The notes beneath the pieces were generated by a model that saw nothing but the letters and a program-made list of their open reading frames with translations, was not told the DNA's origin and did not search any database. A stretch of 64,000 bases of DNA from positions 347,936 to 411,935 of the forward strand of contig JASNYI010000002.1 in assembly GCA_048500275.1 (NCBI GenBank), read 5' to 3'. Within the stretch, counting starts at the first letter, position 1. Every line of letters begins with the position of its first letter. The DNA comes from Thermoanaerobaculia bacterium (GTDB lineage Bacteria; Acidobacteriota; Thermoanaerobaculia; UBA5066). Below, piece after piece: positions 8,660 to 59,144 of the stretch. The position numbers and the translations under genes are program-made.

Positions 8660-8917
8660 TCAAGCGAGCCTCCGTGCGGACGCCGGAGCGGGGGCGCGGA
8701 GACTCGCCTTCTGGAGGCGCGGGTCGAGGGAGTCGGCGAAACGGTCGAACTCGAGCGGGTCGAGCGCGGCGAGGGTCGAGACCTCGGCAGGCGTCAGCTC
8801 GAGGCCTCGCTCCGCGAGGGTCCGTACGACCCGTGCCGGGCCGGACCGGAACTCACGCCGGAAGTCCTCGTCCGTGGCGAGCCTTCCGACGATCCGTTCC
8901 ACGTTGGCCTGCGACAT
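8660..8917 (-). CDS. Small Nif11 / NHLP-leader-like domain protein (85 aa)
   Basis: MSQANVERIVGRLATDEDFRREFRSGPARVVRTLAERGLELTPAEV matches the Nif11/NHLP leader pattern (MSQ..L..F...V..D..L...L.....P..VV.IA...G..IT.EEL). GGAG ribosome-binding site 11 nt upstream. No Cys/Ser/Thr-rich core follows. Confidence 0.5.
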   Translation of the reverse strand: MSQANVERIVGRLATDEDFRREFRSGPARVVRTLAERGLELTPAEVSTLAALDPLEFDRFADSLDPRLQKASLRAPAPASARRLA

Positions 8918-9143
8918 CCGCTTCGCTTCTCCGTGACGTGCATGTCAAGGGCCGTGCCAGCCCTCGCAGGAGGGGCCGGGGACGGCCTGACGCGCACGGT
9001 TGTCGACCGGAGCCGCGCCGCCGGCGCCCCCGGGTGAACCTCGCCCGTGCGTCGAAGGCTTCAATCTGTAGAATTCCCCGCACCGCAGCGGCGGGCGGCC
9101 GAGCCGGCGCGTTCCCCGAGCCGCCCCGCGCGTAGGAGGAATC

Positions 9144-24264: not shown

Positions 24265-27200
24265 TCATCGGCCGGACGGCGCCGCGACGGGCCGCCTGAT
24301 GACCCGCCCCGGCAGGAAGCTCGCGTCGTTCGTGAGGTTGTCGATCCGAATGGCGTGCGCGATGACGCCGCCCCCGTCGACGACCTCGACGAGGACCGAG
24401 GCTTCCGCCCGGGGGGGAGCGCCCATCTCCGCGAAGACGTCGTTCCACTGGACCGCCTGATAGCGCTCGAGGACGAGGTCCCGCGTCGCCACCTTCGCTC
24501 CGTCGGTGTCGAGCAGGGTGACCCGCACGAACGTCTGGATCCCGAACGTCTCGAGGAACCCGAGGTTCGTCCGGCTCCGGGGGGACGAGGCGAGGAACGT
24601 CAGGGCGATCTTCTCGCGCGCCACGGCTTCCGCGTTCTCCAGGACGCCGATGGCGAGACCGTAGCTCTTACCCGGCTCCTCGGCCCAGGTCCGGCTCGAG
24701 ACGACGACGCCCGGCGAATCCCCGAGGACGGTGAGCCTCAGGGCGCCGGCAGCGTCGCCGCGAACCCCGAGGAGGCTCTCGAGGACGTCCTCGAACAGGC
24801 GCGTCTCCCACGCCCCGAGGCTGAGTACGAGCTGGAAGGGGCCCTCGCCCCGGGAGGGGAAGTAGGAGATCCGGACGTTCGCGGGCGCGGGCCAGGGGTT
24901 CGAGATCTTGAGGTCGGTCCGGAAGAAGGCGCCGAACCGCCCGGGGGCTCTCGCCGTCGCGGGGAGGAAGACGTCCCGCCGAAGCCGGGACGCGGTCACG
25001 AGGAGGCCGTCGTTGGAGCCGTTGTCGACCGCGGTCGCCCAGCCGACGACCCGCCCGGCGCCGGAGAGGACGCGCAGCTCGAGAAGGTCTCCCGGAGTCG
25101 CGGCGAGGTTGAGGGCCTTGTGGACGTCGTTGACCTGGCGGCTCTCGAGCCGCTCGAGGTCGAGCGGCAGGCGTCCCCGGACGGAGCCGCCGCCGTCCCT
25201 GAGGATGATCTCGACCGAGGCCGGGGCCCCGTTGATCTCGACCACGCCGAGGTTGACCCGGGAGGTGCCGGGCCGGAAGACCGGAACGAGCCAGGCGGGG
25301 GAATCGCCCTCGCCGATCGCGCCCTCGGGGCCGACGTCCGGCACGAGGAGGCCGTACGCCCCTCCGCCGGCGGACGTGGCTTCCGTCCGGCTCGCGACGA
25401 CGACTCCCGGAGGGGCCGCGACGTGGACGGGGCCGAAGCCCGTCGTCCGGAAGGCGTTCCCGACGACGTCCTCGAGGATCCTCGTCGAGAGGGGCGGGAG
25501 GGAGAGGGTGACGGACACGGTCCCTGCCGTGGGGCGGCCGGACGGCAGGAAGGAGAGCGTGACGTCGGCCGGCGCGACTTCGTCGGGGTTGAAGAGGACG
25601 ACGTCGCTGGCGAAGAAGGCCCCGTGAAGCCCGGCGTTGCGGGCGATCGTCGGGAGGAGCCGCGCCGGGGAGCCCGGGACGTCCGAGCGCCGAGGGGTCT
25701 CGGGCTCGACGACGACGGCCCAGCTCGTCAGGCGGCCCCCGTCGGGCCCGTCCTCGAGGCGGAGCGTCCAGGTCCCCTCGACCGGCCTCCCCGCGAAGAG
25801 GGAGAGCGGCTCGACGCTCTCCACGGTCCTGCCGATCACCTCCCGAAAGACCGTCCCCGGACGGAGGGAGCCGTCGAGAAGGAGCAGGGTCATGCCGTCC
25901 GGCGACGTGAGGAAGGCGCGCACCCCGGCGGGCTCCGGGTGCTCGAAGGAGAGGGAGATCGCGAGGCTCGCGACCCGGCCGACGAGCGACGTGACCGAGG
26001 CCCGGCAGACGGTCGCCTCGCCGCCGCCCCCCTCTGTCGAAGCGCGTTCGCAGGGGCCCGTGAACGGCCAGGGCGAGGCGAACGCGGCGCCGACGTCGAT
26101 CCGGGGCGTCGTCGCGCCGCTCTTCTCGTCCGTCACGGGAACGCCCGTCAGGCGGAGGAAGTCGGCGGAGAGAACGGGGTCGGCGAACGGGGAGAACTGG
26201 CGCGCCAGGAGCAGAGACGCGGCGGCGGCGGGGGCGGCCGCCGAAGTCCCCGAGAAGGTCGTGCGCCGCCCGCCGCCAGCGGTCGGCACGATCCACCGGA
26301 CGCCGGGCGCGAGCATCGAGAGCGCGGGCCCCCCGTTGCTCGAGCAGGGGACGACGTCCGGCCCGGTGACGGAGTCGCTGCAGGAGGAGTCGCCGTCCCA
26401 GGTCGTCGGCCCCTGCCCCGCGGAGTAGACCATTCCGACGCTGACGACGTCGGCGTGACACGCGGGCCAGGAGACGCCGCCGGAGGAGCCGGAGTTTCCG
26501 GAGGCCGCCACGACGGCGAGGCCCTCCGCCCTGGCGCGGGCGAAGAGCGAGGCGGAGACGGGGTCCTCTCCGTCGCAGAAGCCGTCGCGGACCCGGTCGT
26601 CGGCGAGGCTGAGGTTCAGGACGTCGATCCCCAGGTCGCTCCGGCGCTCGAGCGCCCAGTCGACCGCCGCCAGCACGTCCGAGGCGAGCGCGGCCGAGCA
26701 GCCGTCCCGGGCGCCGAAGACCTTGAGCGCCACGATCGAGGCCTCCGGGGCGATCCCCTGCACGCCCGCGGCGACTCCGGCGACGGCGGTGCCGTGACCG
26801 TCGCAATCGTAGAGGTCGGCGTTGCCGTCGGCGAAGTTCCAGCCCCCGACGATGCGGCCGCCGCCGGAGGAGGACGCGCCGAGGTCGGGGTGGTAGAGGT
26901 CGATTCCGGTGTCGACGATTCCGATCGCGCGTCCCGCCCCGGTGACCCCGGCGGCGAGGAGGCGGTCCGCTCCGATCTGGGCGGCGCCGACCTGCCCGGC
27001 AGGGCGGACGACGCGGTCGAGGACGATCGCCCGGGTCGCGCCGTCTCGCCCGAGCTGCGCGAGCGCCTGCGAGGTCAGCCAGCCCGTGAGGACCCGGCCC
27101 CCCGAGAGGGAGCGGACGACCTCGAAGCCGGCGGGGGCCTCCCCGGTCTCGCCCGCGTCTCGCGAGACGAGGACCCGCACCCGCTCCCCGTTCGCGACCC

Positions 27201-27315
27201 GCTCCCGGACGCCGCTGGCCACGTGAGGAGCCGCATTCCCGGCGGGGGCCGAGAGGAGCGCCGGGGCCAGGGCCGCGGCCGCGAGGAAGGCGCCTGCGGC
27301 GCAGAGGAATCGCAT
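24265..27315 (-). CDS. Secreted subtilisin-like serine protease (S8) with a kexin-type P-domain and two C-terminal repeat domains
   Basis: Catalytic D (IVDTGID), H (DCDGHGTAVAG) and S (GTSAAAPAAAAS). P-domain-like segment. Two ~120-aa C-terminal repeats (AFFASDVVLFNP... and AFFRTDLKISNP...). Confidence 0.85.
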   Translation of the reverse strand: MRFLCAAGAFLAAAALAPALLSAPAGNAAPHVASGVRERVANGERVRVLVSRDAGETGEAPAGFEVVRSLSGGRVLTGWLTSQALAQLGRDGATRAIVLDRVVRPAGQVGAAQIGADRLLAAGVTGAGRAIGIVDTGIDLYHPDLGASSSGGGRIVGGWNFADGNADLYDCDGHGTAVAGVAAGVQGIAPEASIVALKVFGARDGCSAALASDVLAAVDWALERRSDLGIDVLNLSLADDRVRDGFCDGEDPVSASLFARARAEGLAVVAASGNSGSSGGVSWPACHADVVSVGMVYSAGQGPTTWDGDSSCSDSVTGPDVVPCSSNGGPALSMLAPGVRWIVPTAGGGRRTTFSGTSAAAPAAAASLLLARQFSPFADPVLSADFLRLTGVPVTDEKSGATTPRIDVGAAFASPWPFTGPCERASTEGGGGEATVCRASVTSLVGRVASLAISLSFEHPEPAGVRAFLTSPDGMTLLLLDGSLRPGTVFREVIGRTVESVEPLSLFAGRPVEGTWTLRLEDGPDGGRLTSWAVVVEPETPRRSDVPGSPARLLPTIARNAGLHGAFFASDVVLFNPDEVAPADVTLSFLPSGRPTAGTVSVTLSLPPLSTRILEDVVGNAFRTTGFGPVHVAAPPGVVVASRTEATSAGGGAYGLLVPDVGPEGAIGEGDSPAWLVPVFRPGTSRVNLGVVEINGAPASVEIILRDGGGSVRGRLPLDLERLESRQVNDVHKALNLAATPGDLLELRVLSGAGRVVGWATAVDNGSNDGLLVTASRLRRDVFLPATARAPGRFGAFFRTDLKISNPWPAPANVRISYFPSRGEGPFQLVLSLGAWETRLFEDVLESLLGVRGDAAGALRLTVLGDSPGVVVSSRTWAEEPGKSYGLAIGVLENAEAVAREKIALTFLASSPRSRTNLGFLETFGIQTFVRVTLLDTDGAKVATRDLVLERYQAVQWNDVFAEMGAPPRAEASVLVEVVDGGGVIAHAIRIDNLTNDASFLPGRVIRRPVAAPSGR

Positions 27316-27412
27316 CGTAACGGGCGAAAGCTATCACCGGACGCCGTGCGAGGACGTGAGGGCCGTCATCGGGGCGCCGGGAGTGAGTGACGCGGGCCGA
27401 TAGAATCCCACC

Positions 27413-28195
27413 GTGGTTCCCTATCCGTCGCCGCACCCGGTCGCGGAAGGAGGCGTGGCGGTCTTCGCCGACGCCCACCTCGGGCAGGTCGAGGACGACG
27501 GCGACGACTTCCTCGCCGCGCTCGACGACGCCGTGGCGCGCGGCTGCAGGACCGTCGTCCTCCTCGGCGACATCTTCCACTACTTCATCGGGAGCGCGAA
27601 GCTCGAGACACCCCTCGTCCGGCGGGTCGTCTCGGCGTGGGACGATCTCGCGGCGAGGGGTGTGGAGCTCCGGTACGTCGAGGGGAACCGCGATTTCTTT
27701 CTCCGCGGGACGCGCTGGGCGCGGTCCTTCGCGGCCTACGGCGACACGGACGGGCTCCTCGTCGGTTCCCGCCGTTTCGCCTTCGTCCACGGCGACCGGA
27801 TCAACACCCGGGACCTCCCGTACCGCTTCTGGCGCCGCCTCTCGAAGAACCCCGTGTCGCGGGCCGCGCTCGGCCTGATCCCGGGGCCGCTCGCCCGGGC
27901 GATCGTCGTGAAGACGGAAGCCCGTCTCTACCGGACGAACTTCCGGCACAAGCGCGTGCTGCCCGACCGGGAGCTGGTCCTGGAGGCGGAGCGGGTCCGG
28001 GCCGCCGGGTACGACGAGCTCCTCGTCGGGCACTTCCACGTGGAGCGGCACTACGAGGGGGAGAGGGGCATCGCCCGGATTCTCCCCGCCTGGCTCGAGG
28101 AGAGGCGGCACGCCGAGATCGGCCCGGAGGGCGTCCTGAAGATCGTCGAGGAGCCGAGCGCCGCCCGGGCGGTGCGCCGCGCGGCGCCGGCGTGA
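27413..28195 (+). CDS. lpxH: UDP-2,3-diacylglucosamine hydrolase-like metallophosphoesterase
   Basis: VFADAHLG, LLGDIFHYF, GNRDFF and HGDR metallophosphatase motifs. The exact start (GTG at 27413) is uncertain. Confidence 0.65.
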   Translation: MVPYPSPHPVAEGGVAVFADAHLGQVEDDGDDFLAALDDAVARGCRTVVLLGDIFHYFIGSAKLETPLVRRVVSAWDDLAARGVELRYVEGNRDFFLRGTRWARSFAAYGDTDGLLVGSRRFAFVHGDRINTRDLPYRFWRRLSKNPVSRAALGLIPGPLARAIVVKTEARLYRTNFRHKRVLPDRELVLEAERVRAAGYDELLVGHFHVERHYEGERGIARILPAWLEERRHAEIGPEGVLKIVEEPSAARAVRRAAPA

Positions 28196-29448
28196 AGCTC
28201 CCGCGAGGGCGGCTCTCGGGGACGCTGCGCGTCCCCGGCTCCAAGAGCCTCACGAACCGCGCGCTCGTGGCGGCCGCGCTCGCCCCGGGCGTGAGCGAGA
28301 TCGTTGCTCCGCTCGACGCGGACGACACCCGGGTCCTCGCCGCGGCTCTCGGGCGGCTCGGTGCGAAGGTCGAGATCGGCGGCGACTCCTGGACGATGGC
28401 GGGCCCCCTCGGCGGGTGCGACCGGGAGGAAGTGCACCTGGACGTCGGGCCGGCGGGGACGCCCGCCCGGTTCCTCCTGGCCCTGTTGTCGGCCCTCCCC
28501 GGCCGCTTCGTCCTCGACGGCTCGTCCCGGATGCGAGAGAGGCCGATGGGGCCGCTCGTCGAGGCGCTCCGTTCCCGCGGCGCCCGGATCGAGGCGCTCG
28601 GGAGAGAGGGCTTCCTTCCCCTGCGCGTCGCGGGGGCGACGCTGACGGGCGGCGAGGTCGCGATCCGCGCCGACGTCTCGTCGCAGTTCGTCTCCGCGCT
28701 CCTCCTCGTCTCGCCTCTCGTGCCGGGCGGGCTCTCCGTACGCGCCGAGGGGCGGCCGGTCTCCGGCGCCTACGTCGAGCTGACCCGAGTCGTCCTGGCC
28801 GCCTTCGCGCCGGCGGGCGTGTACCGGGCGACCCGTTTCGTCGTCGCGGGAGACGACTCGGCCGCCTGCTTCCCGATCGCGGGCGCCGTCGTCTCCGGCG
28901 GCTCCATCCGCCTCGAGGGGCTCGACCCGGACTCCGCGCAGCCCGACGCGCTCTTCCGGCGCTGGGCCGAACGGGCGGGAGGGAACCTCTGCTGGGAAGG
29001 GAAGGGCGAGGGCGCGGTCCTCGTCGTCGAAGGGGCGGGACGCGGGGTCGCGGCTCTCGACGCCGACGTCGACCCGGCGCCCGACGCGGCGCTGCCGCTG
29101 GCGGCTCTCCTCGCCTTCTCGCGCGGACGATCGCGCCTTCGCGGCGTCTCCCGCCTGCGGGAGAAGGAGTCGGACCGGCTCGCCGCCGCGCTCGACCTCC
29201 TGCGCTCCGCCGGCGCCGCGGTACTCGTCGAGGAGGGGGAGGACGGCGAGGCGCTGGTCGTCGACGGGCCCGCGGGACAGCCGCGCCGCGCTTCCTTCGC
29301 CTCGGCGGACGACCACCGGGTCGCCATGGCGGCCGCGGTCCTCGCCCTCGCGCTTCCGGATGGGTGCGAGATCGACGCTCCCGGCGTGGTCTCGAAGTCG
29401 TATCCCCGGTTCTGGGCGGACTGGGCTTCGCTCGTCGCGGCCGGCTGA
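28192..29448 (+). CDS. aroA: 3-phosphoshikimate 1-carboxyvinyltransferase (EPSP synthase)
   Basis: GSKSLTNRAL motif and the overall EPSP synthase fold. The GTG start overlaps the lpxH stop (GTGA). Confidence 0.85.
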   Translation: MKLPRGRLSGTLRVPGSKSLTNRALVAAALAPGVSEIVAPLDADDTRVLAAALGRLGAKVEIGGDSWTMAGPLGGCDREEVHLDVGPAGTPARFLLALLSALPGRFVLDGSSRMRERPMGPLVEALRSRGARIEALGREGFLPLRVAGATLTGGEVAIRADVSSQFVSALLLVSPLVPGGLSVRAEGRPVSGAYVELTRVVLAAFAPAGVYRATRFVVAGDDSAACFPIAGAVVSGGSIRLEGLDPDSAQPDALFRRWAERAGGNLCWEGKGEGAVLVVEGAGRGVAALDADVDPAPDAALPLAALLAFSRGRSRLRGVSRLREKESDRLAAALDLLRSAGAAVLVEEGEDGEALVVDGPAGQPRRASFASADDHRVAMAAAVLALALPDGCEIDAPGVVSKSYPRFWADWASLVAAG

Positions 29449-29475: not shown

Positions 29476-32400
29476 ATGAAACCCTTCAGCGGAGAGGGTG
29501 AACGTGTGAGGCGAAGGGCCGGGAACGAGGCCGCGCGGCCGCCGGAGTGGGTCATCCCCGGAACCGACGTCCTCGCGGGCGCGGCCGAGGTCGGACGGCT
29601 ACTTCACGCGGCTCTTCCGGCTTTCGCCTGGGGTCGCCGGGCCGGCAACGCCTGGGTCCTCGGGCCTGCCCCTCCGCCCCGGCGCCTGCCGGAGGACCTC
29701 ACCGACGTCGAGCACGCCGCGTTTCTCGTGCGGCTCGCGGGCCTTCTCTCGTTCCTCAGCGCGCACGGTCTCGGCCTCTCCCCGGAAGGGGTGAAAGCCC
29801 TGGGGACCCGGCCCGGCACCCGGGACGTCCCGTGGCTCCAGGCTCCGCCTGTTCCCGCCTTCAGGGCTGTGGCGGCGCCGTTCGTCCTGGGGAGCGTGAC
29901 ACTCCGCCTCGCGGGGAGGGAAGCCGCCGCCGACAGGGCCCGCGACGCGAGGAGGGCGATGGAGGAAGCCCTCGCCGAGGGTCTCCCGGCGAGGTCGCTG
30001 GAGGCCGTCGCGGCGGCGCTCCGGGCGTCGGACGGTGTCCGGTCGTCAGAGGCCCTGCTCCTCGACCTCGCGGGGACGGCCGGCATCGGGGAAAGGGTCG
30101 CGCTCGACCTCCTCGGGCTCGCCGTGCCCCGCGAGGTCGCACCCGCGTCCGGCGAGCGGCTCGTGGCCAGCGGGGGAGAGGCGGACTGGATCGCCCGTGG
30201 TGCGGCCCGGCGCGCGCCCGCGGAGAACGGCTTCGCCGAAGCGGGGCCGCCGGCATCCCTGGAGGACGGCGCGTGCCTCCTCGAGCTGGCGTCGGGGCTC
30301 GGTCCCGATCCGCGCGCGGCCGTTCTCGAGGCCCTCGCCCGCGGCGAAAAGCCCTCCCCGCAGCCGGGTCCGCCGCTGGTCCTCCTCGCGCGGGAGCTCG
30401 AGCGGTGGGACGAGCGGTCCCGGCAGGGCTGGGAGCAGCTCCCCGGGCTGGTCCCGGGGGTTTCGAGAGTCGAGTCCCGCGCCGATGCCCCGCCGCCGTG
30501 GCAGAAGGTCTCCCTTCTCGTTCCCCGCCTCGGGCGCGAGGAGGTCTCGGGTCTCGTTCACCTGCCTCTCGCCTCGCCGCCGGCCTTCTCGCGCCTCTGG
30601 GAGGAGCTGGCCGAGGAGGCGGCGGGAGACCCGGCTTGCCTTCTTCGCGGGGCAAGGCTTCGGGCGAGGAGCTTTCTGGCCGGACCGGGCCGGGCGCCGT
30701 CTCGCCGGCGGGGAGCCGCCGCCCCCGACGCGGTCCTCCGGGCGTCCGCCCTCCTGGGCGACGGCTTTCCCCTTTTCGAGGCGGCCGCGGCGGCCGGGAC
30801 CCCGCCGGAAAGGACGGCCCGGGTCCTCGCGGAGGCGTGCGACGACGGCACCCTGGTCCGTACGCCGGGCGGCGGTTTTCGCTTCGCGGAGGAGGGCCTG
30901 CGGCGCCGGCTCGCCGCGGGCCTCTCGCCCACGGAGATCGCCTCGAGCCTGGCCAGACTCGAGGCCGCCGGGACCGGTGCGACGAGGCTCCTTCTCGCGA
31001 GGTTGACCGGCGGGCCGTCGACGTCCGACCTCGACGAGTGCCGGCGGCGGCTGTTAGAGGCCGTCCGTTCGGGGCGCGGCGACGAGGCGGCGGCGCTCCT
31101 CGGCCGCGCGCCTTCCGAGGGCCCTGACCTCGGGGAACCGGCCCTCGCCGCGGAGGCCCACGCTGCGGCCGGACGGATGGAGGACGCGCGCGCCTCGGCC
31201 GGCCGCGTCGACACCCGCCAGCTGACGGGACTGGCTCCGGGCCGGCGCGAGAAGCTCGCCCGGCTCCTCGCCCGGCTCGGCGAGGAGTCGAAGGCGCTCG
31301 AGCTCGTCTCCGCGACGGAAGGACTGGACGGGCGACTCGCGAGGGCGGATCTCCTCCTCCGCCTGCGCAGGGAAGGAGAAGCGGCGGAGGTCCTCGACGG
31401 CGTCCTCCCGGGGGACGGCCCGCATGCCGCGAGGGTCCACCTCCTGCGGGCGGAGCTCCACGAGAGGCGCCAGGAGCTGCCGCGGGCGGAGGAGGAGCTG
31501 CGGGCCGTCGCCGCCTGCCTCGACCGCTTCCCCGATGCTCCCGGGCTTTCCGAGACCGGGTTCACGGCCGGCTACCTCGCTCTCGGTCTCGGAAGGACCC
31601 GGGAGGCGCGCGCATTCTTTCGCGCGGCCAGAGACGACGCCCGCGACCCCTCGAGACGGGCCGACGCCCTCTTCGACCTGTCGGTGGCCGCCGCGGGGGA
31701 GGGCGAGCTGGCGGAGGCGGAGGCGACACTCGAGGAAGCCCTCGCGCTCTACTCCGCGATCGGGGAGAGGGGCCGCTACCTCGGAGCGCTCGGCCAGAGA
31801 GCCGCCGTGGCCCTCCAGCGGAGCGACGCGCGCGCGGCCCGCCGCGACCTGGAGACGGTCCTCGCCCACGACCGGATGCCGGGGCGGGCCTTCCAGCTCC
31901 TCTTCTCGCTCCCGCTGCGGCAGCGCCTCGCCCTCGCCGACGGCGACGACGCGGACGGCGCCGAGGCTTTCGCGGAGGCGGAATCCCGCGCGACCGAGTG
32001 CCCGGACCACCCCGCCCGGCGAGAGGTGCTCGTTCTCGAGGCGGCTCGTCTCCTGGCGGCGGGCCTCGCCGCCGAAGCGCTCGCAAAGGCCGCGGAAGCC
32101 GAGCCCCTTCCGGATGCCCGCAGCGGCGTCGAGCCGCTGCGCGCGAGGCTCGCGGCCTCTGCGCTGCGCGACCTCGGGGGAGATCCGGCTCCTCCGGCGT
32201 CGTTCGAAGGCGAGGAGCGGGCGCTCCAGGAAGCCGAGGGGGCGCTGGTCGCGGGGCTGCCGCCGGCCCCGGCCGCCCGTCGGGCGCTCGCGGATCGCTT
32301 CGAGCGTCCCGAGGGAGCGATCGAGGTGGTGACGAGGCTCCTCGAGTGGCGAGGGCGCTTCCCCTCGTTTTTCGCGGCGCCGGAGTCGTCGCCGCTGCGC

Positions 32401-33417
32401 GAGCTGGGGCTTCGGGCCGCGCGACGCGCGGGACTGGACCGCGCGTCCCGGCGCTTCGCGGCCGTCCCGGCGGCGGAGATGCCCGAGGGGCGCGGCCCGG
32501 CGGCCCCCGACGACACCCCGTTCGTGGCGGAAGACGCGGCGACACGGGAGGTCCTGGAGACGGTCCGCCGCGTCGCCCCCCACAGGATCTCCGTCCTCGT
32601 CCTCGGGGAAAGCGGGACGGGGAAGGAGCTGGTGGCGCGGGAGGTGCACCGCGCCTCACGACGCGCCGGCCCGTTCGTCGCCGTGAACGTGGCGGCGCTC
32701 CCGGAGACGCTCGCGGAGGCGGAGCTCTTCGGCGCCGCCCGGGGAGCCTTCACGGGGGCCGAACGGGACCGGGCCGGCGTCATCGAGGCTTCGTCCGGAG
32801 GGACGCTCTTCCTGGACGAGATCGGCGACCTCTCGCCGCTCGTCCAGTCCAAGCTGCTGCGCGTCCTGCAGGAACGCGAGGTGAGGCGGCTCGGCGAGAC
32901 ACGGACGCGCGCCGTGGATCTCCGGCTCGTCGCGGCCACCCATCGCGACCTCGGCCGGCTGACCGGAGAGGGGCGATTCCGGGGGGACCTCCTCTACCGG
33001 ATCGCGGGGATCACCGTCACGCTGCCTCCGCTGCGGGAGCGGCCGCGGGACCTGCGCGCCCTCCTCGAGAAGGCTCTTGGCGGAACTCCCGTCTCTCCCG
33101 AGGCCAGAGCGGCCCTCCTCTCCTGGCCCTGGCCCGGAAACGTGAGGGAGCTCCAGTCGGCCGTCGAGGCAGCGAAGGCGCTCGCGGGCGGGGGGCGCGT
33201 GGAGAAGGCGCACCTCCCCGCCCGGCTCCGCGAGGAGAGAAACGTTCCCGGGGGAGGAAAGGGCCGCTACCGGGAGGCCGTGGACGAGGCGAAGAGGAGG
33301 GTCATCCGCGAGGCGCTCTCGGAGGCGGGAGGGAACCGGACGCGGGCGGCCGCGCTCCTCGGGCTGTCGAGGCAGTCCCTCCTCTACGAGATCAAGAGGC
33401 TCGCTCTCACCGACTAG
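29476..33417 (+). CDS. Sigma-54-dependent transcriptional activator (bacterial enhancer-binding protein) with a ~950-aa N-terminal region of TPR-like/unknown domains
   Basis: C-terminal AAA+ sigma-54 interaction domain (GESGTGKE Walker A, GAFTGA loop, LFLDEIGDL) and Fis-type HTH (SRQSLLYEIKRL). The N-terminus has no REC, GAF or PAS domain that I can recognise. Confidence 0.8.
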   Translation: MKPFSGEGERVRRRAGNEAARPPEWVIPGTDVLAGAAEVGRLLHAALPAFAWGRRAGNAWVLGPAPPPRRLPEDLTDVEHAAFLVRLAGLLSFLSAHGLGLSPEGVKALGTRPGTRDVPWLQAPPVPAFRAVAAPFVLGSVTLRLAGREAAADRARDARRAMEEALAEGLPARSLEAVAAALRASDGVRSSEALLLDLAGTAGIGERVALDLLGLAVPREVAPASGERLVASGGEADWIARGAARRAPAENGFAEAGPPASLEDGACLLELASGLGPDPRAAVLEALARGEKPSPQPGPPLVLLARELERWDERSRQGWEQLPGLVPGVSRVESRADAPPPWQKVSLLVPRLGREEVSGLVHLPLASPPAFSRLWEELAEEAAGDPACLLRGARLRARSFLAGPGRAPSRRRGAAAPDAVLRASALLGDGFPLFEAAAAAGTPPERTARVLAEACDDGTLVRTPGGGFRFAEEGLRRRLAAGLSPTEIASSLARLEAAGTGATRLLLARLTGGPSTSDLDECRRRLLEAVRSGRGDEAAALLGRAPSEGPDLGEPALAAEAHAAAGRMEDARASAGRVDTRQLTGLAPGRREKLARLLARLGEESKALELVSATEGLDGRLARADLLLRLRREGEAAEVLDGVLPGDGPHAARVHLLRAELHERRQELPRAEEELRAVAACLDRFPDAPGLSETGFTAGYLALGLGRTREARAFFRAARDDARDPSRRADALFDLSVAAAGEGELAEAEATLEEALALYSAIGERGRYLGALGQRAAVALQRSDARAARRDLETVLAHDRMPGRAFQLLFSLPLRQRLALADGDDADGAEAFAEAESRATECPDHPARREVLVLEAARLLAAGLAAEALAKAAEAEPLPDARSGVEPLRARLAASALRDLGGDPAPPASFEGEERALQEAEGALVAGLPPAPAARRALADRFERPEGAIEVVTRLLEWRGRFPSFFAAPESSPLRELGLRAARRAGLDRASRRFAAVPAAEMPEGRGPAAPDDTPFVAEDAATREVLETVRRVAPHRISVLVLGESGTGKELVAREVHRASRRAGPFVAVNVAALPETLAEAELFGAARGAFTGAERDRAGVIEASSGGTLFLDEIGDLSPLVQSKLLRVLQEREVRRLGETRTRAVDLRLVAATHRDLGRLTGEGRFRGDLLYRIAGITVTLPPLRERPRDLRALLEKALGGTPVSPEARAALLSWPWPGNVRELQSAVEAAKALAGGGRVEKAHLPARLREERNVPGGGKGRYREAVDEAKRRVIREALSEAGGNRTRAAALLGLSRQSLLYEIKRLALTD

Positions 33418-33533: not shown

Positions 33534-35591
33534 GTGAGCGCGAGCGGGCGTCCCGTCGGCCGCGCGGCCCTCGCGCTCGGCCTCCTCGCGGTCCTGCCGT
33601 TCCTGAACGGGCTGACGGCCGACTTCACCTTCGACGACAAGGTGATCGTCCGCGACAACCCCCGCCTTGCCTCGCCCCGGCGCGCGGGCGAGGTCTTCAC
33701 CTCGCACTACTCCGGCGGACCGCTCTCGACGGCGAAGAACTTCCGGCCGGTGGTCCTCCTCACGTACGCGGTCCAGCGGTGGACGACGGGGACCGACCCC
33801 TTCCCGTTCCACGCCGTGAACGTCCTCCTCCACGCGGCGACGACGCTCGCCCTCGCGGCCTGGCTCCTCGGACTCGGCATGCCGCGCGGGCCGTCGCTGG
33901 CGGCGGCGGCGCTGTTCGCCGTGGTGCCGATCCACGTCGAGGCGGTGACGGGGATCGTCGGCCGGGCCGAGCTCCTCTCCGCGCTCCTCGTGCTCCTGGC
34001 GGCGATCCTCTTCCAGCGCGCGACGGACGGGACGCCGCTCAGGGCTCTCCCGTACGCCGGGGCTCTCGCGGCATTCCTCCTCGCCCTCTTCACGAAGGAG
34101 AACGCCGTCGTCCTGCCCGGAATCGTCGTCCTCGGGGACCTCCTGCGCCGCGACGTTCCCGGGACCCTCGTGTCCCGGCTCCGGCGGAAGGCCCTGCCGG
34201 CGGCCGGGCTCCTCCTCCCGCTGGCGGCCTTCGTCGCGGTCCGCCTCTTCGTCCTCGGCGGCGGCCTCGTCGGGAGGCCCTCGGCGTTCTTCGAGCTCGA
34301 CAACCCTCTCGCGCCTCTCGCCGACCCGCTCCGCGCCGCGAACGGCCTCTGGCTCCTCGTGCGCTACGCCGCGAAGACGTTCGTCCCGCTCGGGCTGTCG
34401 GCCGACCACTCGGCGCACGCCCTCGACCTCGTGACGTCCCTCGCCGACCCGAGGGTGGCGGCGGCCCTGGCGGCCGTGGCCGGGCTTGCGGCGGCGGGGC
34501 TCGCGGCGGCCCGGCGGCACCCCCTCGTTCCGCTCGGCGCGGCGTTCTTCCTCGGGACGCTCCTGCCCGCTTCGAACATCCTCTTCCCGATCGGGACGAT
34601 CTACGCCGAGCGGCTCGCCTATCTCCCCTCCGCCGGGCTCGTCGTGGCGGCGGCCGGCGCCTTCGCGGCGGTTCCGCGGTGCTCGCGGCCGTTCCGGGCC
34701 GCGGTCCTCGCGATCGTCGTCGCCACGTACGCGGGCGCCACCGTCGCGCGCAACGAGGTCTTCCGCGACGACGATTCGCTCTTCGCCGACATGGTTGCGA
34801 AGGTCCCGCGCTCGGCGCGGGCCCGGTACAACGTGGCGTACGTGGCGTGGCGGCGCGGGGAGCTCGCCTCGGCCCGCAGGAACCTCGAGACGGCGGTGGC
34901 CCTCTTTCCCCGCCACTACGACGCGTGGACGCTCCTCGGTCTCGTCGCGGCAAAGGAAGGGCGCATCGGCGACGCGAGGGCCGCGTGCCGCGAGGCCCTC
35001 CGGGTCAAGCCGGACAACGAGCGCGCCTGGCGGGCCCTGTGGAGGGTCGAGGAGGAATCCGGGCGCTTCGACGAGGCGGAGCGCGCGCTCGCGGAGGGTC
35101 TTCGCCGCTTCCCTCGCTCCCGGGCCCTCCTCTCCGGCCGGGCGGATTCCCTGCACGGGCGCGGACGATTCGAGGAAGCGCGCCGGGCGTGGGAGGACGC
35201 CCTCGCCGTGGACGGCAGGGCCGTCGAGGCCCGGCTCGGCCTCGCGCGGACCCTCTCGGCGCTCGGGCGCGACGGGGAGGCGATCGTCGAGGCGCGATGG
35301 GCCGTCGCGGCCTCCCCGGGATCGGTCGCCGCGCGCATCTTCCTCGCCGGTCGGTACGAGGCCGGGGGAAAGGCCCTCGCCGCCGCGGCGGAGCTCGGGC
35401 GGGCCGTGAGGGCGGCGCCCCGCGATCCCGGGCCGGCGCGCCTCCTTCTCGAGCTCGGGGCCCGGGAACCCGAGGCCCGGTCCGTCGCGACGACGGCCCT
35501 CGCCGGCATCGAGAAGTCGTTCGGGAAGCCCGTGCGGAACCTCGGTCTCAGGGCTTCCGTCGAGGCCTTTCGCGCCGCCGCGGGCCGGTAG
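33534..35591 (+). CDS. TMTC/PMT-like polytopic membrane protein with C-terminal TPR repeats (DUF1736-type; putative protein O-mannosyl/glycosyltransferase)
   Basis: N-terminal multi-TM region containing the FTFDDKVIVRDNP motif typical of TMTC/DUF1736, followed by several TPR repeats. GTG start. Confidence 0.7.
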   Translation: MSASGRPVGRAALALGLLAVLPFLNGLTADFTFDDKVIVRDNPRLASPRRAGEVFTSHYSGGPLSTAKNFRPVVLLTYAVQRWTTGTDPFPFHAVNVLLHAATTLALAAWLLGLGMPRGPSLAAAALFAVVPIHVEAVTGIVGRAELLSALLVLLAAILFQRATDGTPLRALPYAGALAAFLLALFTKENAVVLPGIVVLGDLLRRDVPGTLVSRLRRKALPAAGLLLPLAAFVAVRLFVLGGGLVGRPSAFFELDNPLAPLADPLRAANGLWLLVRYAAKTFVPLGLSADHSAHALDLVTSLADPRVAAALAAVAGLAAAGLAAARRHPLVPLGAAFFLGTLLPASNILFPIGTIYAERLAYLPSAGLVVAAAGAFAAVPRCSRPFRAAVLAIVVATYAGATVARNEVFRDDDSLFADMVAKVPRSARARYNVAYVAWRRGELASARRNLETAVALFPRHYDAWTLLGLVAAKEGRIGDARAACREALRVKPDNERAWRALWRVEEESGRFDEAERALAEGLRRFPRSRALLSGRADSLHGRGRFEEARRAWEDALAVDGRAVEARLGLARTLSALGRDGEAIVEARWAVAASPGSVAARIFLAGRYEAGGKALAAAAELGRAVRAAPRDPGPARLLLELGAREPEARSVATTALAGIEKSFGKPVRNLGLRASVEAFRAAAGR

Positions 35592-45507: not shown

Positions 45508-46484
45508 CGGGCCGCCTCCCGGAGCCGCTGCGCCGGCTCGCCCGTCGGATCGTGCCGCTCCCCGTGCGGCTCGCGCTGAAGAGGCGACGGGGCGCCGCCG
45601 AGGTGTGGAGCGAGGCGCCCGCGCCCGTCGTTCCCGGCCGTGAGCTCCACTGGACGCAGCTCGCCGCGGTGCGCGAGCACGTCAACCGCCGCGTCTCGGG
45701 AGACCCGGCGGTCGACCCCTACATGAACTTCCTGCGGACGCGGCTCGGGGGACGACTTCCCGTCGGCAGGGCCCTGACGATCGGCTGCGGCGAGGGGGCG
45801 CTCGAGCGCGGGCTCGCCGCGCACGGCTTTGCCGAGCGCCACGACGCCGTCGACATCGCCGCGGGGGCCGTCGAGCGCGCCGCGGCCGCGGCGCGGGAGG
45901 CGGGGCTCGACCACCTCCGGTACGGCGTCGCCGACGCGAACCGGCTCCGCCTCGAGCCGGCGTCCTTCGACATCGTCCTCGGGGTGCAGGCGGTCCACCA
46001 CGTCGAGAGGCTCGAGCACCTCTTCGGCCAGGTGGCGAAGGCGCTCCGGCCGGACGGCTTCCTCTTCCTCGACGAGTTCGTCGGTCCGAGCCGGTTCCAG
46101 TGGACGGAGCGTCAGCTCGAGGTCGTCGACGGGCTGCTGCGCGCCCTCCCCGCCGGCCTTCGCCGGAGCCTCGTCGACGGCTCCGTCCGCGGGAGGGCGC
46201 GACGGCCGTCGGTGGCGGAGGTGATCGCCACGGACCCCTCCGAGGCGGTCCGCTCCTCGGAGATCCTCGCGGTCGCGTCGGAGTTCTTCGAGATCCTCGA
46301 GGTGCGGCCGTACGGCGGCACCGTTCTCCAGGTCCTCCTCGACGACATCGCAGGGAACTTCGCGCGGCCCGGGTCGGGCGGCCGGGAGATCCTCGACGCG
46401 ATCGCCGGCCTCGAGTGGGCGCTGATCGAGGCAGGAGACCTGCAGAGCGATTTCGCGGTCGTGGTCGCCAGGGCGAAGGGCTAA
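45504..46484 (+). CDS. Class I SAM-dependent methyltransferase
   Basis: Motif I LTIGCGEGAL; Methyltransf_11/12-like. The GTG start overlaps the preceding stop (GTGA). Confidence 0.65.
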   Translation: MTGRLPEPLRRLARRIVPLPVRLALKRRRGAAEVWSEAPAPVVPGRELHWTQLAAVREHVNRRVSGDPAVDPYMNFLRTRLGGRLPVGRALTIGCGEGALERGLAAHGFAERHDAVDIAAGAVERAAAAAREAGLDHLRYGVADANRLRLEPASFDIVLGVQAVHHVERLEHLFGQVAKALRPDGFLFLDEFVGPSRFQWTERQLEVVDGLLRALPAGLRRSLVDGSVRGRARRPSVAEVIATDPSEAVRSSEILAVASEFFEILEVRPYGGTVLQVLLDDIAGNFARPGSGGREILDAIAGLEWALIEAGDLQSDFAVVVARAKG

Positions 46485-49060
46485 CCGCCCGCGCCCGCGG
46501 GGGTGCGCCGCGGCCGGTCCGTCGGGCCCCGGCGCCGAGAGGGCCGCTTCGCCGACCCGGGCCCGGCGAGCGCGGGAAGCCCGGGCGCAGGAAGCGCCGC
46601 GGCGGGCTCCTCCGCGGCGCGGTGGGCGACGCGCGAGAAGAAGTCGCGGACGGCGTCGCCCGCCTCGGCGGCGGCGAGCTCGCTGGGGCCCTCTTCGTAC
46701 CAGTGCGACGGGAGGAAGCGGCGGTACGGGTTCTGGAGGAACCGCCGGCAGACGAGGGCGATGACGCCGACGTCGGTCTCCGAGCGGATCACCCTCCCCG
46801 CGCTCTGGACGACCCTCGTCATCCCGGGGACGACGTAGGCGTACTCGAAGCCGCGGCCGTAGCGCTCCTCGAAGTAGAGGCGCATCCGCTCCTGCTCGAA
46901 GCGCACCTGGGGCAGGGCGGGGGAGACGACGACGACGCCGTGGAGCATCTCGCCCGGGTAGTCGACCCCCTCCGCGAAGGGCCCGCCCGAGACCGCGAGG
47001 AGGAGGATCCGGGAGCGTTCCTCGCGCAGGGCCTCGAGGACGGCGTTCCTCTCGAGCTCCGTGGAGCGGTCCGACGGGCGCAGGACGCGGTGACCCGGCA
47101 GCGGCGGCAGGAGGGCCCGGGCGTCGTCGACGAACCGGTAGGAAGGGAAGAGGGCGAGGACGTTGCCCGGGCAGGCGTCGGCGATCTTCGCGACGTGGTC
47201 GGCGATGCGGGACATCGACGCGGAGCGCCCCTTCCAGGTCGTGTCGACGTCGGCGGCCACGACGACGGCCCGGTTCTCCTTCGGGAATGGAGACGGGAGG
47301 GAGAGGACGGACGTGCGGTCGGGGTCGAGGCCGAGGAGGTCCCGGTAGAACTCGGGGGGGCTGAGGGTCGCCGACATGCCGACCGTCGCAAACGCCGCGT
47401 CGAACGTCTCGCCGAGGAGGCGCGAAGGGTCCTTGCAGAGGAGCGAGAGTCGGGCGCCGCCCGCCCCCCGCGAGGCGACGAGGTCGAAGGCCTCGACGAG
47501 CCGGCCTTCCGGGGCCGCCCGCCGGGCGACGTCGTGGAAGCCGGCGAAGAGGAAGTAGAGGCCGAGGACAGGGTCGTCCGGAACGCGCTCGCCGCCGTTG
47601 CGCAGGTCGGCGAGGTGGCGGACGAGGAGGGACTCCATCGAGAGTCGCACGTCGTCGAGCTTCTCGAGGTCGAGGGGGACGAGGTCCGTCGACGGGTTCC
47701 AAGGGTCCGGGGCGGCGGGGAGCCCCGCGGTCGCCTCGAGGACGAGGGCGAGGACCTCCGAGGCGGCCTCCTGGGCCGCGGCCGCGGTCTTCGGGCTCGT
47801 CGTGCCGATGGCCTCGGAGAGCTTTCGCACCTCGGCTTCCGAAAGCTCGGGCGACCAGATGGCGCGGCCGCGGTCGACGAGGTTGTGGACCTCGTCGACG
47901 AGTAGGAGCGCCCCCTCGAGGGAGGCGGCGTCGCGCAGGCCCGTGAGGGCGACCACCGGGTCGAAGGCGTAGTTGTAGTCGCCGAGGACGACGTCGGCCC
48001 TCTCCGCCAGCTCGAGGGAGACCTCGAAGGGGCAGACCTCCTCGGCCCGCGCTTCCTCGAAGACGAAGTCGGGCTCGAGGTGGGGGGTGGCGGCGAGGAG
48101 CCGGTCTACGAGGCCGGAGGCCTCGAGCTTGGCGGCGTAGTCCTTCGCGAAGGCGCAGTGGTCCTCGTGGCAGAGGACGACGCCGTTGGCGCACATCCGC
48201 TCCTTGGCGCGCAGTCGCACCGAGCGGGCCGAGGCCGCCGCGATCGCTTCGAGGGTCTTCCTGAAGATCTCCTGCTGGGTCGTCTTCGACGTCAGGACGT
48301 AGAGCTTCCGCCCGCCGCGCAGGGCCTCGACGAGCATCGGGAAGAGGGCCGCGGCGGTCTTGCCGATGCCCGTGGGGGCCTCGACGAGGAGCTGCTCGCC
48401 CTGGCGAACGGCCCGCGACACGGCCGCCGCCATCTCGCGCTGGCCCGGGCGGAAGCGCCCGAACGGGAAGACGAGGTCGTCCGCCTCGGCGGCCTTGGCG
48501 TCGGCGAGCGCGAGGTCGCCGAAGAACGCCGCGAGCGTGGCGCGGACCCTCGCGACGAGGTCGGCCTCGACCTCCTCCGCGTCGAACGCCACCGGGACGA
48601 GGCGCGTGTCGCCGGTCTCGATGTCGGCGAGGACGAGGCGGCCGCGGACGGGGCGCTCTTCCGCCCTCGAGACGGCGAGGAGGTACCACTGTAGCTGGCG
48701 CGCGAAGCGGTCGAGGCGCGGCGAGCCGAGGAGGCGCGGAAGCTCCTCGGCGAAGTGGACCGACTTCACCTCGTCGACGACGACGCTCCCGTCGCCGTCG
48801 TCGAAACGGCCGTCGAGGCGCCCCTCCAGGATCGCCGTGAAGCCGTCGACCGGAAACGAGAGACGGACGGCCTTCTCCACCGCGTACCCGGGAATCGTCG
48901 CGAGAGCCTCGGAGAGGACACGGCGGTGGACGGCCTGGCCGATCCACCGGCGCTCCATCGAGTCGCCCCGGCCGTCCCCGATGCGGCGCGCCAGCGGCGC
49001 GAGGAGGGCGCCCGGGGAGAGGGTCACGGTCTTCGCGGCGAGGTCGACCCGGATCGGCAC
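46481..49060 (-). CDS. XPD/DinG-family Fe-S DNA helicase with an N-terminal PD-(D/E)xK (RecB/Cas4-like) nuclease-like domain
   Basis: Helicase motifs: Walker A APTGIGKT, 4-Cys cluster C-x5-C-x3-C ... C, DEVH box LLVDEVHNL, C-terminal HD2 motifs. N-terminal ~180 aa carry GRLDGRFD ... VVVDEVKS, which resemble RecB-nuclease motifs II and III. Confidence 0.75.
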   Translation of the reverse strand: MPIRVDLAAKTVTLSPGALLAPLARRIGDGRGDSMERRWIGQAVHRRVLSEALATIPGYAVEKAVRLSFPVDGFTAILEGRLDGRFDDGDGSVVVDEVKSVHFAEELPRLLGSPRLDRFARQLQWYLLAVSRAEERPVRGRLVLADIETGDTRLVPVAFDAEEVEADLVARVRATLAAFFGDLALADAKAAEADDLVFPFGRFRPGQREMAAAVSRAVRQGEQLLVEAPTGIGKTAAALFPMLVEALRGGRKLYVLTSKTTQQEIFRKTLEAIAAASARSVRLRAKERMCANGVVLCHEDHCAFAKDYAAKLEASGLVDRLLAATPHLEPDFVFEEARAEEVCPFEVSLELAERADVVLGDYNYAFDPVVALTGLRDAASLEGALLLVDEVHNLVDRGRAIWSPELSEAEVRKLSEAIGTTSPKTAAAAQEAASEVLALVLEATAGLPAAPDPWNPSTDLVPLDLEKLDDVRLSMESLLVRHLADLRNGGERVPDDPVLGLYFLFAGFHDVARRAAPEGRLVEAFDLVASRGAGGARLSLLCKDPSRLLGETFDAAFATVGMSATLSPPEFYRDLLGLDPDRTSVLSLPSPFPKENRAVVVAADVDTTWKGRSASMSRIADHVAKIADACPGNVLALFPSYRFVDDARALLPPLPGHRVLRPSDRSTELERNAVLEALREERSRILLLAVSGGPFAEGVDYPGEMLHGVVVVSPALPQVRFEQERMRLYFEERYGRGFEYAYVVPGMTRVVQSAGRVIRSETDVGVIALVCRRFLQNPYRRFLPSHWYEEGPSELAAAEAGDAVRDFFSRVAHRAAEEPAAALPAPGLPALAGPGSAKRPSRRRGPTDRPRRTPAGAGG

Positions 49061-57836: not shown

Positions 57837-59140
<1,304 letters not shown>

Positions 59141-59144
<4 letters not shown>

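Follow-up and report, generated by a model that had tools for sequence, protein, structure and literature searches.

An atypical sigma-54 enhancer-binding protein from Thermoanaerobaculia with a large input region resembling PknK-type STAND kinases

Sigma-54 enhancer-binding proteins (bEBPs) bind to upstream DNA sites, form ATP-dependent rings and contact sigma-54 by means of the GAFTGA loop. They are a textbook example of an AAA+ motor governed by modular inputs. Their N-terminal modules steer ring assembly or ATPase activity either negatively, as in XylR/DmpR, NorR and DctD/NtrC1, or positively, as in NtrC. Here we analyze a bEBP gene located at 29476..33417 (+ strand, stop codon included) of a 64,000-nucleotide stretch of a Thermoanaerobaculia bacterium genome (contig JASNYI010000002.1, positions 347,936 to 411,935; hereafter, the window). 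The open reading frame (ORF) starts with ATG at 29476 and encodes a 1313-amino-acid (aa) product, the length given in an original prediction made from the DNA sequence alone.

The comparison that we develop is with STAND proteins, the hallmark of which is a nucleotide-binding domain (NBD) joined to a helical domain (HD) and a winged-helix domain (WHD), which lead into an arm and then a repeat-type sensor (PMC4381067, PMC6468293). The PknK protein of Mycobacterium tuberculosis has been named as a STAND protein that carries a Ser/Thr kinase (PMC4381067). In the resting state, contacts of the NBD with the WHD, the arm and the sensor around ADP hold STAND proteins in a closed form, and an inducer on the sensor frees these contacts, leading to ATP binding and multimerization (PMC6468293, PMC4381067). 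Our reading of the window protein, to which we assign a probability of about 60%, is that it is a functional bEBP whose input (residues ~21–995) would be a catalytically dead PknK-type STAND kinase, acting as a nucleotide-independent conformational sensor. The descent of the input module from a STAND kinase is inferred.

Output module and predicted folds of the input region

The C-terminal part of the protein was found to carry the canonical bEBP modules. The sigma-54 interaction AAA+ domain (Pfam PF00158, Sigma54_activat, E 4.7e-61) occupies residues 1017–1181 (32524..33018, on the + strand like all parts of the protein given below), and its motifs are invariant or almost so in the family, with Walker A as GESGTGKE (1044–1051) and Walker B as LFLDE (1111–1115); FRGDLLYR is found at 1168–1175. 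The GAFTGA loop (1090–1095) is near-fully conserved, being GAFSGA in two members of alignment A1 and GAYTGA in some, and the ELFGH-E/K-GAFTGA region reads ELFGAARGAFTGA in the clade of the window protein. The AAA+ lid with sensor II follows at residues 1205–1256 (33088..33243; AAA_lid_14, E 3.9e-12; GNVREL at 1221–1226), and the Fis-type helix-turn-helix (HTH) DNA-binding domain at residues 1274–1308 (33295..33399; HTH_8, E 5e-9), with an SRQSLLYE recognition region that is invariant in the family. With a PF00158 AAA+ domain containing Walker A/B, a GAFTGA loop and a C-terminal Fis-type HTH, the protein belongs to the bEBPs, and its output module is complete. None of the NCBIfam equivalogs reached its cut-off; the best was AtoC, which scored 277 bits where 714 are required. 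The protein is therefore not orthologous to any named bEBP.

The input region is not of the usual kind. Pfam gave no match to REC, GAF, PAS or V4R in residues 1–1016, where there were only sub-threshold TPR_16/TPR_12 matches at 652–760, and Pfam, NCBIfam and PADLOC runs on the whole protein returned only the C-terminal modules and sub-threshold TPRs; in homologues, TPR_12, TPR_2 and TPR_19 were matched with significant E-values. Ala, Leu and Arg make up 47% of the N-terminal 1010 residues. The original prediction of an atypical bEBP, with canonical output but an Ala/Arg/Leu-rich N-terminus devoid of these sensor domains, is thus borne out, although the non-canonical region is about 1016 aa long rather than about 950 aa. 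A Pfam scan of 26 family members reported AAA_16 in three; these matches, which are probably to the sigma-54 P-loop, were not used as evidence.

Two AlphaFold2 predictions, of residues 1–1020 and residues 1–500, were built on a 47-sequence family alignment. The longer model had a predicted local distance difference test (pLDDT) score of 82.5 and a predicted template modelling (pTM) score of 0.55, whereas the shorter one had 85.9 and 0.79, with pLDDT of about 90 over residues 21–400 and agreement of four of the five models. Both yielded the same structural elements. Residues ~21–212 (29536..30111) are predicted to form a mixed alpha/beta, protein-kinase-like domain with a long helix at 77–96. 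An AAA+/STAND-type NBD of alternating beta strands and alpha helices is predicted at residues ~214–352 (30115..30531), and an HD at residues ~354–401 (30535..30678; helices 354–358, 368–382 and 386–400). After a disordered loop (402–418), a WHD of three helices and a hairpin is predicted at residues ~419–497 (30730..30966), followed by an all-alpha, TPR-like solenoid of about 26 helices at residues ~502–995 (30979..32460; pLDDT mostly 85–95), which, by analogy, would be the arm plus sensor of the STAND layout. A linker at residues 996–1016 (32461..32523) leads to the output module; it is predicted to be disordered (pLDDT <50 for 999–1017) and falls in variable, poorly conserved alignment columns. 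The original prediction had TPR-like repeats preceded by about 120 aa of unknown fold. The repeats were indeed found, confined to ~502–995, but the part before them consists of about 500 folded residues in which structure prediction and the fold and profile searches recognize three folds, kinase-like and STAND-type NBD-HD-WHD, at ~21–497. These are known folds, and none of them is a standard bEBP sensor.

When the 1–1020 model was compared to the Protein Data Bank (PDB) using Foldseek, the top two matches were PH0952 (6mfv, a STAND-TPR protein, E 2e-7) and Avs3 (8dgc, STAND), followed by many TPR proteins, and the 1–500 model returned the NBD-HD-WHD proteins RuvB, RFC, Apaf-1, PH0952, ORC and MgsA. 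MalT (8bob) and winged-helix regulators were also among the fold matches of the N-terminal region. A profile of residues 1–500, made from 14 sequences, was searched exhaustively against 1.84 billion representative proteins. It gave 32 proteins at E<1e-10, all of them family members or fragments, and weaker matches (E 1e-6 to 1e-3) that all fell on profile positions ~400–490, which correspond to the WHD. Ten of the weak-match proteins were scanned with Pfam, and AAA_16 was present in 10/10, in architectures of the AAA_16-TPR, AAA_16-GerE (LAL type), Trans_reg_C-BTAD-AAA_16 (SARP/AfsR type) and Pkinase-AAA_16 kinds.

Profile-profile comparisons were made with hhalign, using the family alignment against assembled target sets. 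Residues 293–489 aligned with 14 AAA_16 proteins at a probability of 98.3% (E 1.8e-14), and residues 290–833 aligned with 31 Pkinase-AAA_16-TPR proteins of ~1150–1220 aa at 98.8% (E 1e-16). The latter alignment was colinear from the Walker B strand through the HD, WHD and arm into the TPRs. The features of a STAND protein that were found are the NBD-HD-WHD fold, profile homology (293–489 and 290–833) and a C-terminal TPR sensor. The domain order of the PknK type, kinase, then NOD, then TPR, is likewise present in the predicted folds and in the colinear profile alignment running from Walker B into the TPRs.

In global alignments with AAA_16 proteins, the family sequence G..AA.WvARGAARR was placed on the P-loop (GeaGvGKTrL), PPLvLLAr..DRWD.RS on plvvvvDDlqWAD..S, and AGDParll on tGNPfFv. 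The last of these covers the GxP motif of the HD, in which AGDP (383–386) aligns with GNP and for which a distant clade reads GEF, TNA, QEP or TDS.

Several points weigh against the STAND-kinase reading. The first half of the NBD (214–290) had no significant profile match by itself, and a comparison of the NBD without the WHD to AAA_16 proteins without their WHD gave an E-value of 0.056, which is not significant. An alignment of residues 27–92 with the kinase alphaC (L.HPnIv) to alphaE (aL.yaH..Gi) region is colinear with the fold match, but at E 0.023 it is not evidence alone. Because neither segment is significant alone in profile comparison, the kinase-like domain and the first half of the NBD rest mainly on predicted structure, and the kinase-like assignment of ~21–212 is drawn from the fold evidence only. 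The hhalign E-values are single pairwise values that may be inflated by the Ala/Leu/Arg-rich composition and the TPR repeats, the inter-domain arrangement is uncertain at the pTM given above for 1–1020, and conservation of the GxP motif in the HD is partial. Finally, the direction of control, the signal and the target promoters discussed below are inferred.

A first alternative is that the kinase-like and NOD fold assignments do not hold. Pfam shows only sub-threshold TPRs, and residues 1–290 have no significant sequence match outside the family. Searches of the N-terminus against PDB sequences by phmmer and profile gave weak matches to TPR (CpoB) and winged HTH proteins and none to a kinase, and Pfam AAA_16 itself did not match the N-terminus of the window protein. 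We nevertheless consider this alternative unlikely, because the models are confident across residues 21–400 and agree in four of five cases, NBD-HD-WHD proteins were returned by Foldseek, the profile-profile alignment from the Walker B position to the WHD is significant and colinear, and the weak kinase alignment covers precisely the segment expected from the fold match, alphaC-alphaE. Together with the loss of motifs throughout the family described next, two independent fold searches and the 290–833 profile match make the proposed architecture fairly solid.

The catalytic motifs that define both enzyme classes were looked for in residues 1–500, and G.G..G, HRD, H.D, DFG, GxxxxGK[ST] and GK[ST] were absent; G.G..G, HRD, DFG and GK[ST] are missing from every family member. 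There is also no Lys that is conserved in this region in the family, the window protein having four at non-conserved positions. As for the kinase-like domain, the Gly-rich loop, the beta3 Lys, HRD and DFG are all missing, with no conserved Lys in 21–212 and HGLG (97–100) in the HRD catalytic-loop position; it is therefore at most a pseudokinase. As for the NBD, GGEADWIARGAARR stands at the GxxxxGK[ST] position of Walker A and LVLLARELERWD at the Walker B site, where the position of the acidic pair is A/R, V/G, I/S and so on across the family and is unconserved in all >55 members. The loss is common to the most divergent members (37% identity), and therefore it predates the radiation of the family. 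The residues that are conserved instead are H44, P48, G98, G100, P125, G214, G233, R241-G242-A243, R245, E255, D278, R280, W311, R335, P341-W342, W375, R476 and R494. Because the defining motifs were tested and are absent, we do not file the protein as a STAND NTPase or kinase; it is neither in the functional sense and is likely a derivative of a PknK-type STAND kinase.

Some of these conserved residues bear on a second alternative, in which the STAND-like module would continue to switch with nucleotide through unconventional residues, such as R241/R245/R246 and E255, which are invariant, so that the protein would have two active NTPase engines. A conserved ARGAxRR helix lies exactly at the P-loop position, and E255, W311, R335 and W342 are invariant around the former nucleotide site. 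Some degenerate P-loop proteins keep nucleotide binding. Some pseudokinases also still bind nucleotides (PMC4718504). We regard two live engines as unlikely, because GK[ST] and a conserved Lys are missing from residues 1–500, no acidic pair after the Walker B strand is conserved among the >55 members, and an Arg-rich helix would not be expected to stand in for the glycine-rich geometry of a phosphate loop.

It was also considered that the dead NBD arose within the protein as a duplicate of its sigma-54 AAA+ domain, without any relation to STAND proteins. Alignment of residues 205–500 with the family's own AAA+-lid-HTH region gave an E-value of 0.48, compared to 4e-15 for the same query with AAA_16 STAND proteins. 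In addition, a WHD and TPR sensor that follow an NBD-HD are the STAND hallmark (PMC4381067), and the weak HMMER matches outside the family were on the WHD, with AAA_16 in all ten proteins scanned. The hhalign result speaks against this origin, which we reject as very improbable.

Family, gene neighborhood and candidate promoters

The GC content of the window is 68–77%, and it is full of long spurious ORFs, some of which overlap the bEBP region; the coding potential of the bEBP ORF was therefore tested directly. The GC content at third codon positions was ~0.82–0.93 and that at second positions ~0.52–0.68 over the whole frame, a coding-type pattern throughout, which indicates that the ORF is coding over its entire length. 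A search with residues 1–1010 returned the identical 1313-aa protein and 46 further clusters in which the whole N-terminus was covered. These are ~1150–1325 aa long (mostly 1290–1325), at identities of 76% down to 41%, and all 46 share its C-terminal Pfam domains. Further full-length members, at ~37% identity, came from the exhaustive profile search, so that full-length relatives of ~1270–1366 aa are known from dozens of independent assemblies at identities down to 37%. The family alignment is colinear from about residue 25 to the C-terminal end, which, with the coverage of the whole N-terminus by homologues, supports the ATG at 29476.

The named sources of homologues are metagenome-assembled genomes of Thermoanaerobaculia, Holophagales and Acidobacteriota, and one 'Acidithiobacillales' bin that is probably mis-binned. 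The bEBP gene is real, the whole N-terminus is under selection and the family is conserved in Thermoanaerobaculia-type Acidobacteriota. The aroA stop codon (TGA, 29446–29448) and the bEBP ATG are in the same frame, 27 nucleotides (nt) apart with that single stop codon between them, and this, with a GC content of ~72–77% and many long overlapping spurious ORFs, could suggest that the long ORF arose artificially in annotation or assembly, either from two fused genes or from a pseudogene in a genome of high GC content, but such an artefact is refuted, to a negligible residual probability, by the uniform codon-position pattern, the recurrence of the 1270–1366-aa architecture in dozens of independent assemblies and the fact that aroA and the bEBP gene are separate genes in every related locus.

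The same gene order was found in eight independent loci. It consists of an S8 subtilase gene with a P-domain (-), genes for an LpxH-like phosphoesterase and AroA (+), an optional YdjC-GT2-unknown set (-) and methyltransferase gene (+), the bEBP gene (+), a gene for a TMTC/DUF1736-like TPR membrane protein (+) and a DUF2062-AIRS-Lon-HSP20-NrdR block (-). In the window, Pfam and synteny place the divergent, secreted S8 subtilase gene at 24265..27315 (-), and Pfam/NCBIfam and conserved synteny place the LpxH-like metallophosphoesterase at 27413–28195 (+), followed by EPSP synthase AroA at 28192–29448 (+).

The most constant neighbor is the TMTC-like protein, identified by Pfam TMTC_DUF1736 and TPR families at 33534..35591 (+; putative GTG start), with its TPRs C-terminal. 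Its gene is directly 3′ of the bEBP gene in the window and in loci L003, L004, L011 and L012; in L001 and L010 it comes after two permease genes. The gap between the two genes in the window is 117 nt with no terminator-like site, and so they are possibly co-transcribed. A scan around the bEBP gene for sigma-70 promoters and terminators found nothing, which is uninformative at 75% GC. The bEBP gene seems to belong to the single-copy core of the lineage rather than to mobile or defense genes, and because it is conserved at a single locus throughout this uncultured, high-GC acidobacterial lineage, beside envelope and protease genes, it is probably a core regulator of the surface or secretome biology of this group.

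Candidate sigma-54 promoters were sought in the window as TGGCAC-N5-TTGC with at most one mismatch. Three sites were found, compared to 0.86 expected, and 5/100 shuffled sequences also reached three. Two of them are convincing and have -24/-12-like elements of the form TGGCACG-N4-T(G/C)GC: TGGCACgattcTGGC at 16521–16535 (-), 5′ of the M43 peptidase gene 15520–16494 (-), and TGGCACgcttcTCGC at 17806–17820 (-), 5′ of the paralogous gene 16804–17772 (-). Both are located ~45–60 nt upstream of a GGAGGAG ribosome-binding site and TTG start. The third, TGGCACggcccTTGA at 8945–8959 (-), is weaker, with TTGA at -12 and no -12 GC, and precedes an 87-aa ORF (8663–8923, -). The original prediction spoke of several sigma-54-like promoters in the window, with the bEBP as their candidate regulator; this number is reduced to two good candidates and one doubtful site. 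The M43 sites are 11.6–13 kb from the bEBP gene, the nearest of the three sites being at 11.6 kb, and their promoters are possible targets of the bEBP. Closer to the gene, the regions 5′ of the S8 gene, the Lon-HSP20 block and the gene for the TMTC-like protein contained no -24/-12 promoter at up to two mismatches with intact GG/GC. A recurrent match, CGGCACCGCCGTCGC, inside the S8 gene was rejected because it encodes the GHGTAVAG catalytic motif.

Results for the S8 gene differed between clades. An exact GGCAC-N5-TTGC element occurs once in each distant-clade locus (L001/L002, L004, L010 and L011), ~30 nt 5′ of the syntenic S8 gene and 5–6 kb from the bEBP gene, at 4327–4340 in L001, 4249–4262 in L004, 4276–4289 in L010 and 6535–6548 in L011 (all -). 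The spacers differ (AAGGA, GGCCC, ACGGG and ACCAG), and the surrounding ±10 kb contain no second copy; ~0.28 per locus would be expected by chance. For the distant clade, this is good evidence that the S8 gene has a functional sigma-54 promoter. At the equivalent place in the clade of the window (27316–27412 in the window, and L003 and L012), the GG and/or GC is lost, which suggests a switch of promoter type of the S8 gene between clades. The control of secreted proteases by this family is therefore a reasonable lead, weaker for the window itself. Inspection by eye of the M43 and S8 promoters for shared upstream activator sites gave only vague RGATCY palindromes.

Some further observations were made in the course of this analysis. 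The two M43 genes encode tandem, pappalysin-like metallopeptidases, and between them is a perfect hairpin, GGGGAGCGGTCTGCGGACCGCTCCCC, at ~16745–16770. The 87-aa ORF has a sub-threshold match to Frankia_peptide (a precursor of ribosomally synthesized and post-translationally modified peptides; 32.9 bits, cut-off 48) and adjoins a Ser/Thr kinase gene (6551–8446, +). Directly 5′ of the GTG start of the LpxH-like gene is a non-coding block of ~20 nt (CACGGTGGGATTCTATCGGCC on the - strand at 27393–27413 of the window; CACGGTGAGATCTTANCGGCT in the distant clade), which is found in L001 (~4345–4367), L003, L004, L010, L011 and L012. Its sequence does not vary within each clade and hardly varies from one clade to the other; the block contains a small palindrome (AGATCT / GATnnnATC) and could be an element of the 5′ untranslated region or of translation, or a regulator site.

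In L001 (17733–23885) and L011 (16014–21140), the TMTC-like gene is followed by a convergent Pkinase-TPR gene, an unknown gene of ~425 aa and a gene for an FHA-Trans_reg_C regulator, at the place held in the clade of the window by the DUF2062-AIRS-Lon-HSP20-NrdR block. Ser/Thr kinase and FHA genes are near the bEBP gene in two distant loci, and not consistently across loci. Elsewhere in the window are a 689-aa ORF (59129–61195, +) that joins three enzymes of aromatic amino-acid synthesis, CM_2 (chorismate mutase), PDT (prephenate dehydratase) and DAHP_synth_1 (DAHP synthase), in the same window as aroA, a NiFe-hydrogenase large subunit gene (709–2406, +; E 5e-221) and an XPD/DinG-like helicase gene (46484–49060, -; DEAD_2, HBB and Helicase_C_2).

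A possible mode of control

We suggest a model in which the AAA+ region (1017–1256) and Fis-type HTH would bind upstream sites, form a ring and, by means of ATP and the GAFTGA loop, open the closed complex of sigma-54 RNA polymerase. At rest, a closed pseudo-NOD/TPR assembly would keep the activator ATPase unable to assemble, by occluding or mis-orienting the AAA+ domain. The trigger might be a ligand or partner in the TPR groove, or docking to or phosphorylation of the pseudokinase, upon which the assembly would open and allow ring formation. The oligomerizing ATPase would be the sigma-54 AAA+ domain, joined by the flexible 20-residue linker, since a STAND chassis that cannot use nucleotide could serve only as a ligand- or partner-driven conformational module. 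We favor negative control, possibly with secreted protease and envelope genes as targets.

The kinase-like head may offer a surface for docking or for phosphorylation, in analogy to the pseudokinase of MviN, which, once phosphorylated, recruits FhaA (PMC11898655). We propose, tentatively and at somewhat less than even odds, that a whole Ser/Thr-kinase-STAND-TPR protein lost both activities and was captured as an allosteric input, and that the pseudokinase head links Ser/Thr-kinase or partner signaling to sigma-54 transcription of secreted protease and envelope genes in Thermoanaerobaculia. If so, one polypeptide would contain a dead oligomerization ATPase that senses and a live one that acts.

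Comparison with known systems

The protein resembles NtrC, NifA, XylR, NorR, PspF and other bEBPs with PF00158 and HTH_8 in its AAA+ domain with Walker A/B, GAFTGA, arginine fingers and sensor II and in its Fis-type HTH, and presumably remodels the sigma-54 holoenzyme by use of ATP, as they do. In contrast, most bEBPs have an input module of 120–250 aa, compared to ~1000 aa here, and the usual REC, GAF, PAS, V4R, ACT, PRD and CARF inputs are all absent.

The PknK-type STAND Ser/Thr kinases (Pkinase-AAA_16-TPR, ~1100–1200 aa) have the same order of folds and modules of similar size. However, in the window protein the kinase domain is reduced to ~190 aa without the Gly loop, Lys, HRD and DFG, Walker A/B are missing from the NOD, and a sigma-54 AAA+/HTH output is fused to the C-terminus. 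Therefore, this protein would not signal by phosphorylation of a substrate.

The STAND transcription factors (MalT, PH0952, LAL and AfsR/SARP) are alike in that a NOD and TPR sensor are joined to a DNA-binding output, in accordance with the fold matches to PH0952 (6mfv) and MalT (8bob) and the WHD matches to AAA_16-GerE and BTAD-AAA_16 proteins. The model of autoinhibition used above was taken from this group (PMC6468293, PMC4381067). These factors multimerize by ADP/ATP exchange in the NOD and act on sigma-70-type promoters by means of LuxR, ArsR or SARP domains, whereas the NOD described here is predicted to carry no nucleotide, and multimerization would be driven by the sigma-54 AAA+ domain, which is distinct from it.

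The kinase-homology domain of M. tuberculosis MviN/Rv3910 (PDB 3uqc) is only 13% identical, with no detectable sequence relationship, and belongs to a membrane flippase context, whereas the present protein is a transcription factor. As for anti-phage STAND proteins (Avs), PADLOC matched the AAA+/HTH part only, with RtcR/PspF models, and the gene lies in conserved housekeeping synteny and not in a variable island. Literature searches found no description of a bEBP with a pseudokinase, STAND or TPR input, nor of sigma-54 regulation in Thermoanaerobaculia.

Residues 1–500 are invisible to Pfam, and a family model can be built from the present alignments. If the STAND-kinase reading is correct, two enzymes have been retired into pure allosteric scaffolds, and the clamp logic of STAND proteins works without a nucleotide switch. 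Whereas the known bEBP inputs are small domains, an input of ~1000 residues made up of a pseudokinase, a nucleotide-free STAND module and TPRs would then add a new class to them.

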